Shown piece by piece: positions 17,851 to 18,157 of a DNA stretch of 52,848 nucleotides (positions are counted from its first letter, which is position 1; each line of letters opens with the position of its first letter). The notes beneath the pieces are model-generated. The model did not search any database, was not told the DNA's origin, and worked only from the letters and a program-made list of their open reading frames with translations. A program made the position numbers and the translations under genes. Origin of the DNA: Myxococcota bacterium (GTDB lineage Bacteria; Myxococcota_A; UBA796; SXON01); the NCBI GenBank assembly GCA_964202365.1, contig CAXNIN010000001.1:1-52848 (forward strand), written 5' to 3'.

Positions 17851-18157
17851 CTTACCACTTCCAACAGCGGTCATCGGCGTTGGACGTGGTTGGAGCCGCG
17901 CTCGGCGTGGTTGGTCAACCACCCGTCGTGGTAGGCGATCCCGGGGACGCTGTTGGCCCGGCCGGGCTGCTGTTGGTCCACCGACAGCCGCTGTTGGCGA
18001 GCGCCTCAGCCGCGGTTGGAAACGACGCGACCGCTGAAAGTTCCGCTGTTGGGAATGTCGGTCGCGCTGTTGGCTGGCGCTGTAAGTGCTGTTGGAGGTG
18101 GTAAGCAGTAATTCCAAGCATTTCAGAGTCCTGGAGATACATTTTCAGCGTGGTTGG
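17851..18157. repeat. Phased ~21-bp iteron-like array (core CG[CT][TG]GTTGG, 11 forward copies plus 1 inverted) in the divergent intergenic region
   Basis: Forward copies start at 17885, 17906, 17927 (degenerate), 17948, 17968, 17989, 18011, 18044, 18065, 18087 and 18149. The inverted copy is at 17861-17869. An 18-bp inverted repeat, cttaccacttccaacagc (17851-17868) versus gctgttggaggtggtaag (18088-18105), has 1 mismatch. Confidence 0.8.

Follow-up and report, generated by a model that had tools for sequence, protein, structure and literature searches.

A helically phased array of lineage-specific 8-bp boxes as a probable shared operator between the divergent core operons of a Myxococcota mobile element

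In ParR–parC partition systems, the gene for the binding protein is preceded by blocks of short direct repeats, and the complex that forms on these repeats doubles as a promoter control. The Omega protein of pSM19035, a global regulator and a centromere binder at once, recognizes 7–10 direct short repeats with a terminal inverted unit, placed upstream of several promoters. Iterons are replicon-specific direct repeats that recur about every 22 bp beside an autoregulated gene, as in R6K, RK2, P1 and pPS10, and phage 186 carries an array of Apl boxes at its lysis–lysogeny switch. The cooperative, repeat-bound complex of TubR–tubC also controls a promoter (PMC6009700). The Cox protein of phage P2 binds 9-bp boxes set in helical phase, wrapping the DNA, and the orientation of the boxes is thought to direct filament growth (PMC3936717). 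Streptomyces clt loci are composed of plasmid-specific 8-bp direct repeats read by TraB, the element’s own protein (PMC4447253).

The array described here lies at positions 17851–18157 of the window, which is the whole stretch of DNA analysed and comprises an entire 52.8-kb contig of a 76%-complete MAG. It lacks at least one hallmark of every known family with which it was compared (centromere, Cox/Apl, iteron, Omega and clt). With the type II and type III partition arrays (ParR–parC of plasmids R1 and pSK41; TubR–tubC of pBtoxis and prophage c-st), which carry a cooperative, bent or wrapped filament, it shares short direct repeats 5′ of the gene for a binder, here a candidate. Unlike those systems, it has no motor NTPase gene, is part of an integrated element and appears to serve two divergent promoters; the candidate binder, the 336-residue protein R1 with its coiled coil and novel α/β N-domain, is also unlike the small RHH or winged-helix binders of plasmid centromeres. 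The likeness to the P2 Cox and 186 Apl sites lies in multiple helically phased boxes between oppositely oriented promoters of a temperate element. The Cox sites, however, are 6–7 boxes 10–11 bp apart and Cox also binds attP, whereas the present array has 16 boxes, mostly 21–22 bp apart, with no second cluster and no conserved Cox-like gene. Its direct-repeat period of about 22 bp and replicon-specific sequence are also found in iterons (R6K, RK2, P1 incC/incA and the 12-mers of Vibrio chromosome 2), from which it differs in a conserved core of only 8–9 bp, the lack of a WH1–WH2 Rep and an origin candidate situated at VapE. Direct short repeats with a terminal inverted unit recall the Omega arrays, but there the heptads are contiguous (7-bp period) and bound by a 71-residue RHH protein, whereas here the sites are two helical turns apart. 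Direct repeats of 8 bp are present as in clt; TraB, however, needs an FtsK-like translocase, and neither an FtsK/TraB-like ATPase nor, in the core block, a Walker A motif was found. The sites of OmpR/PhoB/SARP regulators are direct repeats spaced 11/22 bp that overlap or adjoin the −35 region, and the nearest box here would abut the −35 position; no winged-helix activator gene of this type was found among the conserved genes.

The contig holds an integrated mobile element encoding a large serine recombinase (39785–41452), an HTH_17 protein, a resolvase and a VapE-type primase–helicase, together with XRE, ImmA-like and DarB-like methylase–helicase genes and stacked defence genes. Elements of this kind sit integrated in chromosomal contigs of up to 350 kb. 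The array occupies part of a 461-bp gap between the start codons of two divergent blocks (Table 1). The leftward block is a run of ORFans reaching from 17736 down to about 11576, and its first product, memb214, matched nothing in Pfam or PHROG, although its homologues flank the array in relatives. The rightward block opens with R1, R2 and R3, of which R2 and R3 had no match in the PDB. As the first-pass annotation had noted, GC is lower here than in the flanks (64% in the gap versus about 70%). Its statement that the array fills the whole gap was too broad: 307 of the 461 bp are covered, and the rest is conserved promoter- or leader-like sequence.

Table 1 Positions of the array components, promoter-like hexamers and adjoining genes in the window
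Feature	Position	Strand	Description
memb214	17092..17736	-	first gene of the leftward block; Gly-rich, membrane-like protein of 214 aa; from GC3 frame analysis and translation
CATAGT hexamer	17814..17819	-	-10-like, inferred leftward promoter; in conserved block CCACTATGAGCGC (+ strand)
Left double box	17850..17868	-	inverted GTGGTAAG (17851-17858) and inverted GCTGTTGG (17861-17868); left arm of the 19-nt inverted repeat
Distal array	17886..18040	+	eight forward boxes (17886 to 18033), steps of 20-22 bp
Promoter-proximal cluster	18045..18105	+	boxes at 18045, 18066, 18079, 18088 and 18098; steps of 21, 13, 9 and 10 bp
Right double box	18088-18106	+	last two boxes of the cluster (18088, 18098); right arm of the inverted repeat
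TACATT hexamer	18138-18143	+	-10-like, inferred rightward promoter; within block GGAGATACATTTTCAGC (18133..18149)
Isolated box GTGGTTGG	18150..18157	+	just 3' of the -10-like hexamer, about at the inferred transcription start
R1	18198..19208	+	first gene of the rightward block; 336-aa orphan; candidate array binder
R2	19242-19802	+	helical, poly-acidic tail; co-transcribed with R1
R3	19799-20284	+	very conserved; co-transcribed with R1

The array is made up of 14 forward and two inverted 8-mer boxes of the form G-Y-K-G-T-W-R-G, with GCTGTTGG as the core in this element. The forward boxes start at 17886, 17907, 17928, 17949, 17969, 17990, 18012, 18033, 18045, 18066, 18079, 18088, 18098 and 18150, with a pitch of mostly 21–22 bp, and their orientation is strictly polar, the inverted pair lying at one end. 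An earlier count of 12 copies, eleven in the same orientation and one inverted, described boxes that are present as stated, and its start-to-start spacings (21, 21, 21, 20, 21, 22, 33, 21, 22 and 62 bp) were reproduced, but the array is larger than that count. Degenerate boxes at 18033 (GCTGAAAG), 18079 (GCTGTAAG), 18098 (GTGGTAAG) and 17851 (inverted GTGGTAAG) occupy the former 33-bp ‘gap’ and build the cluster next to the rightward promoter, with steps of 12, 21, 13, 9 and 10 bp. The proposal that the sites face the same side of the DNA holds for the enlarged set: with a 10.6-bp period, the 14 forward boxes have a Rayleigh R of 0.83 (p about 6e-5).

In the window, CGYKGTTGG, the strict form of the pattern, is matched 11 times, compared with 2.9 ± 1.7 in shuffles, and 9 of the 11 fall inside these 300 bp. 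Across the 4.14-Mb assembly the pattern has 245 matches, and at least three per 300 bp occur at the array only. Tandem Repeats Finder did not detect the array because the spacers are unrelated to one another; an Rfam search of the region matched no family, and a DNA similarity search against plasmids and phages gave no match. A coding repeat protein was ruled out by the frame-breaking spacings of 20, 22, 13, 9 and 10 bp and by the drop in GC. A repeat acting at the RNA level, such as a leader with an RNA-binding protein, was rejected as the main reading, given that the period is the 10.6-bp helical repeat of DNA and that the inverted double box serves the opposite promoter.

The outermost elements had been described as an 18-bp inverted repeat with one mismatch. 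This repeat is real and extends to 19 nt (17850–17868 versus 18088–18106, one mismatch), but it consists merely of two adjacent boxes, the double box GCTGTTGG-A-GGTGGTAAGC, present once per orientation. All main-family relatives have the left, inverted double box in this position, with a sequence that shifts together with the core of the array, for example to GCTTACCGCTTCCTACCGC in the GCGGTA lineage. At the sole mismatch, T at 17859, close relatives have C, as do contigs from three further sequencing runs, so that the 19-nt repeat is perfect there.

A strict sigma-70 consensus scan returned zero promoters, and a good −35 hexamer was likewise missing. On the leftward side, the CATAGT hexamer is 31 nt from the inverted double box, and the surrounding block is free of indels across the family. 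On the rightward side, a TAnnnT hexamer recurs across the family at a fixed 32 nt 3′ of the last box, and the block GGAGATACATTTTCAGC that contains it in the window shows no variation in six relatives. Across the family, the stretch from the last box to the −10-like hexamer is free of indels on both sides. From this conservation we infer that the hexamers are the −10 elements of two divergent promoters, a placement that puts the double boxes at about −44 to −63; as the nearest box ends 31–32 nt from the hexamer, it would abut the −35 position. An A+T-richer stretch of 44 bp beside the array (18106–18149) coincides with the invariant promoter-like block. The spacing plan of the promoter-proximal cluster recurs in relatives L034 and L045 with different cores, and the isolated box at 18150 is kept in the L035/L036/L044/L045 group and missing in L034.

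R1 homologues occur in 30 of 61 sampled genomes of the same Myxococcota order, often in several copies per genome, and about 30 related elements carry an equivalent array between the same two genes, memb214 and R1, which diverge from the gap. All main-family loci fetched have memb214, the other leftward ORFans and R1–R2–R3, most of them in the same divergent order, and their gaps follow one plan: an inverted double box by the leftward gene, 8–15 forward boxes and a double box by R1. When the core and its phasing were checked in these relatives, as had been suggested for the locus, periodicity and layout proved to be conserved and the core sequence itself lineage-specific. The cores found, by lineage, are GCTGTAGG / GTGGTTGG; GCGGTAAG; GCGGTAGG / GCGGTTTGG; GCGGTTGG / GCGGTCGG; GCGGCAAG / GCGGCCAG; GCAGCAAG; GCGGGGAC; GCGGGAGA; GYGGGGAG; GCGGTCAG; and GCAGCTGG / GCGACTGG. 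In genome G005, three co-resident elements have three different cores.

Among relatives whose R1 is 79–95% identical to that of the window, box columns are 85% identical, in contrast to 42% for spacer columns, and in close relatives the variants GCTG, GTGG and GCGG swap at the same site. Autocorrelation pooled over nine non-redundant relative gaps gave peaks at 9–13, 21–22 (z = 15–23), 31–35 and 43–44 bp, followed by others at 53, 63–65, 74–76 and 84–87 bp, which corresponds to a helical turn of about 10.7 bp and a favoured spacing of two turns. In most of 34 arrays the best period is 10.6–10.8 bp, with R up to 0.9. In six elements (L037, L038, L043, L049, L057 and L065) the gap is split by 2–9 kb of cargo, and both promoters retain an array of the same type: the leftward promoter keeps the inverted double box and a forward run, and R1 keeps its own array and double box. 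As each promoter retains an array after the split, the arrays travel with the promoters.

A layout common to all the related elements, each with a motif of its own, points to a docking array for an element-encoded protein controlling both blocks. The array is therefore probably a cooperative operator, or upstream-activating docking site, of a co-evolving element protein that would control both divergent core operons; this reading comes from sequence comparison, and the binding protein could be activating or repressing. Three functions had been put forward in the first-pass annotation, namely an iteron-type origin, a partition site and a master-regulator site. The last is favoured because the box–promoter geometry is fixed on both sides, an array is kept per promoter after a split and there is one array per element, whereas the iteron origin is weakened and the partition site is left without a partner NTPase or a recognizable centromere-binding protein. 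The number of sites, at least 14, exceeds the need of most transcription switches, is more typical of centromeres and iteron control loci, and counts against a switch.

In such an operator, a sequence-specific, self-associating protein encoded by the element would dock on the 8–9-bp boxes. With boxes every two turns, and every turn near the promoters, all bound subunits would come to lie on one face of the DNA, leading to a cooperative filament or a wrapped complex of about 300 bp. The outward-pointing double box at each end, 31–32 nt upstream of each −10-like hexamer, would let this complex touch both core promoters, its targets being the leftward operon (particle-like or structural ORFans) and the rightward R1–R2–R3 operon. 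Occupancy of the array would then set the two promoters jointly, and many weak, phased sites would make for a steep, all-or-none switch. The rightward promoter could receive feedback through the additional box at its start site, and lineage-specific box sequences would insulate co-resident elements from cross-talk.

The leading candidate for the array-binding protein is R1, an assignment that we put forward tentatively. No other gene stays with the array in every context examined. Most R1 homologues examined, by a large margin, are preceded by an array; a few distant ones (L068, L070 and L071) are not clear-cut. Among the core proteins with full data, R1 distance correlates best with box distance (rho 0.45), a co-variation that could be mere linkage, given the adjacency of gene and array. 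In an AF2 model, R1 is composed of an α/β N-domain (residues 1–130), modelled with confidence (pLDDT 85, pTM 0.77), a coiled coil of approximately 100 residues and a conserved helical C-domain, which is the most conserved part of the protein. Comparison of R1 with box type in sliding windows gave only weak peaks, at the two β-hairpins (residues 33–50 and 105–120) and at two C-terminal segments. Against R1 as the binder count the composition of the protein, which is not basic, and the N-domain, for which no known DNA-binding fold was matched; searches of Pfam, the PDB and BFVD (viral models), in which the full-length and N-domain folds were tried, returned no significant match. R1 homologues form 85 clusters in a large protein collection, none of them named. 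When 1.8 billion representatives were searched with an N-domain profile, 132 clusters (50% identity) were recovered, and no informative fusion to another domain was seen in this family.

Other element proteins were considered as readers of the boxes. Of the binders proposed at the outset, the product of 18198..19208 (R1) is conserved in array-bearing relatives, and the XRE proteins and the sigma factor are not; XRE1, XRE2, the sigma factor and ImmA were rejected as general binders on this ground. R2 and R3 were set aside because both are missing from array-bearing R1-like loci and R3 is too invariant. The specificity of the DarB-like methylase was discarded as the source of the code because an element whose box differs encodes a DarB that is 93% identical.

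The array is the sole non-coding feature common to the whole family of these undescribed multi-copy mobile elements, and it would mark their control centre. Its 8-bp code, which differs between lineages, offers a handle for finding the regulator, for sorting elements into specificity (immunity or incompatibility) groups and for testing whether a particle is made by the ORFan block. Should R1 prove to be the reader, it would represent a new DNA-binding fold with naturally reprogrammed specificities.

A smaller type of unit was observed at loci L059–L064 (for example, G007:C25, G008:C309:27875-30875 and G007:C117:2914-5900), in which an R1-like gene is accompanied by a shorter paralogue with the same N-domain, a gene for a protein of 160–190 residues and a serine recombinase. 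At these loci memb214, R2 and R3 are missing within 8 kb, as is the structural block. Most have a phased array upstream of the R1-like gene, with boxes such as GCGTCCG / GCGTCAA every 21–22 bp; L061 and L063 have 3–5 boxes only. The promoter-proximal clusters of L059–L063 mix the boxes of several lineages (GCGGTAGG, GCGGCAAG, GCGGTTGA and GCTGTAGG), and the distal array of L059 and L060 has a core of its own, GCGTCNN. In G007:C117 and G008:C309 the R1-like unit is positioned just left of a full element, an arrangement that looks like tandem integration. Units of R1-like gene, array and recombinase may be satellites or hitch-hikers.

These units bear on an alternative that we consider unlikely, in which the array is a centromere-like ‘address’ site and an R1 adaptor complex tethers the excised element so that it can segregate or be loaded into a putative particle. 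The variable N-domain of R1 would sit on the DNA, and its conserved C-domain, beyond the coiled coil, would dock conserved element proteins, with promoter control as a by-product, as in ParR–parC or TubR–tubC. The architecture of R1 fits this scheme in that the C-domain is its most conserved part, and so do the presence of one large array per element directly 5′ of the candidate binder’s gene and the lineage-specific cores of co-resident elements, which resemble incompatibility groups. Array-bearing R1-like genes beside serine recombinases, without structural genes and in tandem with full elements (G007:C117, G008:C309), likewise have the look of hitch-hikers. The same dual logic is documented for TubR–tubC (PMC6009700). 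However, the window genes scanned include no ParA, ParM, TubZ or FtsK-like NTPase and the core block no Walker A motif, the elements are integrated in long chromosomal contigs, and split elements duplicate the array at each promoter, which is needless for a single address; the particle itself is putative.

A bolder reading, and a decidedly improbable one, would make R1 and its approximately 130 relatives a new class of adaptor with an unseen fold, reading the 8-bp code through the two β-hairpins of the N-domain, and the small units satellites that plug into a helper. The code, specific to each element, would recur along one face of the helix over about 300 bp, and the conserved C-domain would couple the complex to RNA polymerase or to particle assembly. 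Satellites consisting of an R1-like gene, array and recombinase would in this way tap the circuits by which different helpers are controlled or packaged.

It is quite doubtful that an initiator binds the array as an iteron-type replication origin or as a handcuffing (copy-control) locus, a scheme in which R1 would be a novel Rep. Direct repeats at a spacing of 21–22 bp are classic iteron geometry, and the gene immediately downstream would be autoregulated. The loci that combine an array, R1-like and R1N-like genes and a recombinase resemble a minimal replicon plus an integrase. Yet only 8–9 bp of each 21-bp unit are conserved, the spacers being 42% identical; R1 lacks a winged-helix Rep fold in Pfam, PDB and fold searches; and the array is duplicated upon cargo insertion. 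The A+T-richer 44 bp (18106–18149) adjoin the array as an origin would require, but they are the invariant promoter-like block. A separate origin-like structure adjoins the gene for the VapE primase–helicase (24642–25889), where opposed clusters of the 9-mer GGCCACACC surround a lower-GC core (24355–24633). This structure is conserved in relative L034 with co-varying 9-mers (GGACGCACC / GGACACACC) and, judged by its sequence organization, is likely to be the element’s replication origin, a better candidate than the array.

There is still less reason to regard the boxes as sites for a filament of a small winged-helix excisionase or regulator of the Cox/Apl/Xis/RdfS type, such as the HTH_17 protein (39428–39733). 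A precedent exists in P2 Cox, which binds at least six 9-bp boxes, 10–11 bp apart, at a developmental switch and wraps the DNA (PMC3936717), and an HTH_17/AlpA-like gene lies beside the serine recombinase in the window. Against this, the dominant spacing is two turns rather than one, no second box cluster is present at an att site or elsewhere in the genome, and the related loci fetched, which rarely reach the recombinase end, yielded no homologue of the HTH_17 protein. Least credible of all is the absence of any protein code, the boxes being either G-rich motifs whose phasing curves the DNA intrinsically or the neutral debris of repeats. Short motifs in phase are able to bend DNA, and the binder is putative; but each lineage holds a different, precise 8-mer while the spacers drift, all boxes point one way except for an inverted pair at one end, and the cluster is unique in the genome.

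Several further features of the element were recorded alongside the probable shared operator. In the six cargo-split elements (L037, L038, L043, L049, L057 and L065) the cargo lies inside the array, boxes and a promoter block being retained on either side of it; the array may thus be a place where elements preferentially acquire cargo or recombine with one another. The XRE/XRE/sigma/ImmA cassette 3′ of R3 (20281–23434) is variable cargo, and an XRE2-like gene is present at this site in a subset of relatives only (L036, L051, L053 and L058). The 101-residue HTH_17/AlpA/excisionase-like protein (39428–39733, minus strand) is encoded divergently from the large serine recombinase and is a possible directionality factor or regulator. 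In the leftward block, the (GDDL)n protein (16225–17022, minus strand) is conserved in relatives only over residues about 106 to 265, its N-terminal ~100 residues, including the acidic repeat, being unalignable there by tblastn. Finally, a perfect 9-nt inverted repeat (TGTCGCCGG at 17700–17708 and CCGGCGACA at 17799–17807) links the first part of the leftward gene’s coding region to the 5′ leader predicted for that gene, and the right arm of this repeat lies in a block conserved in relatives.
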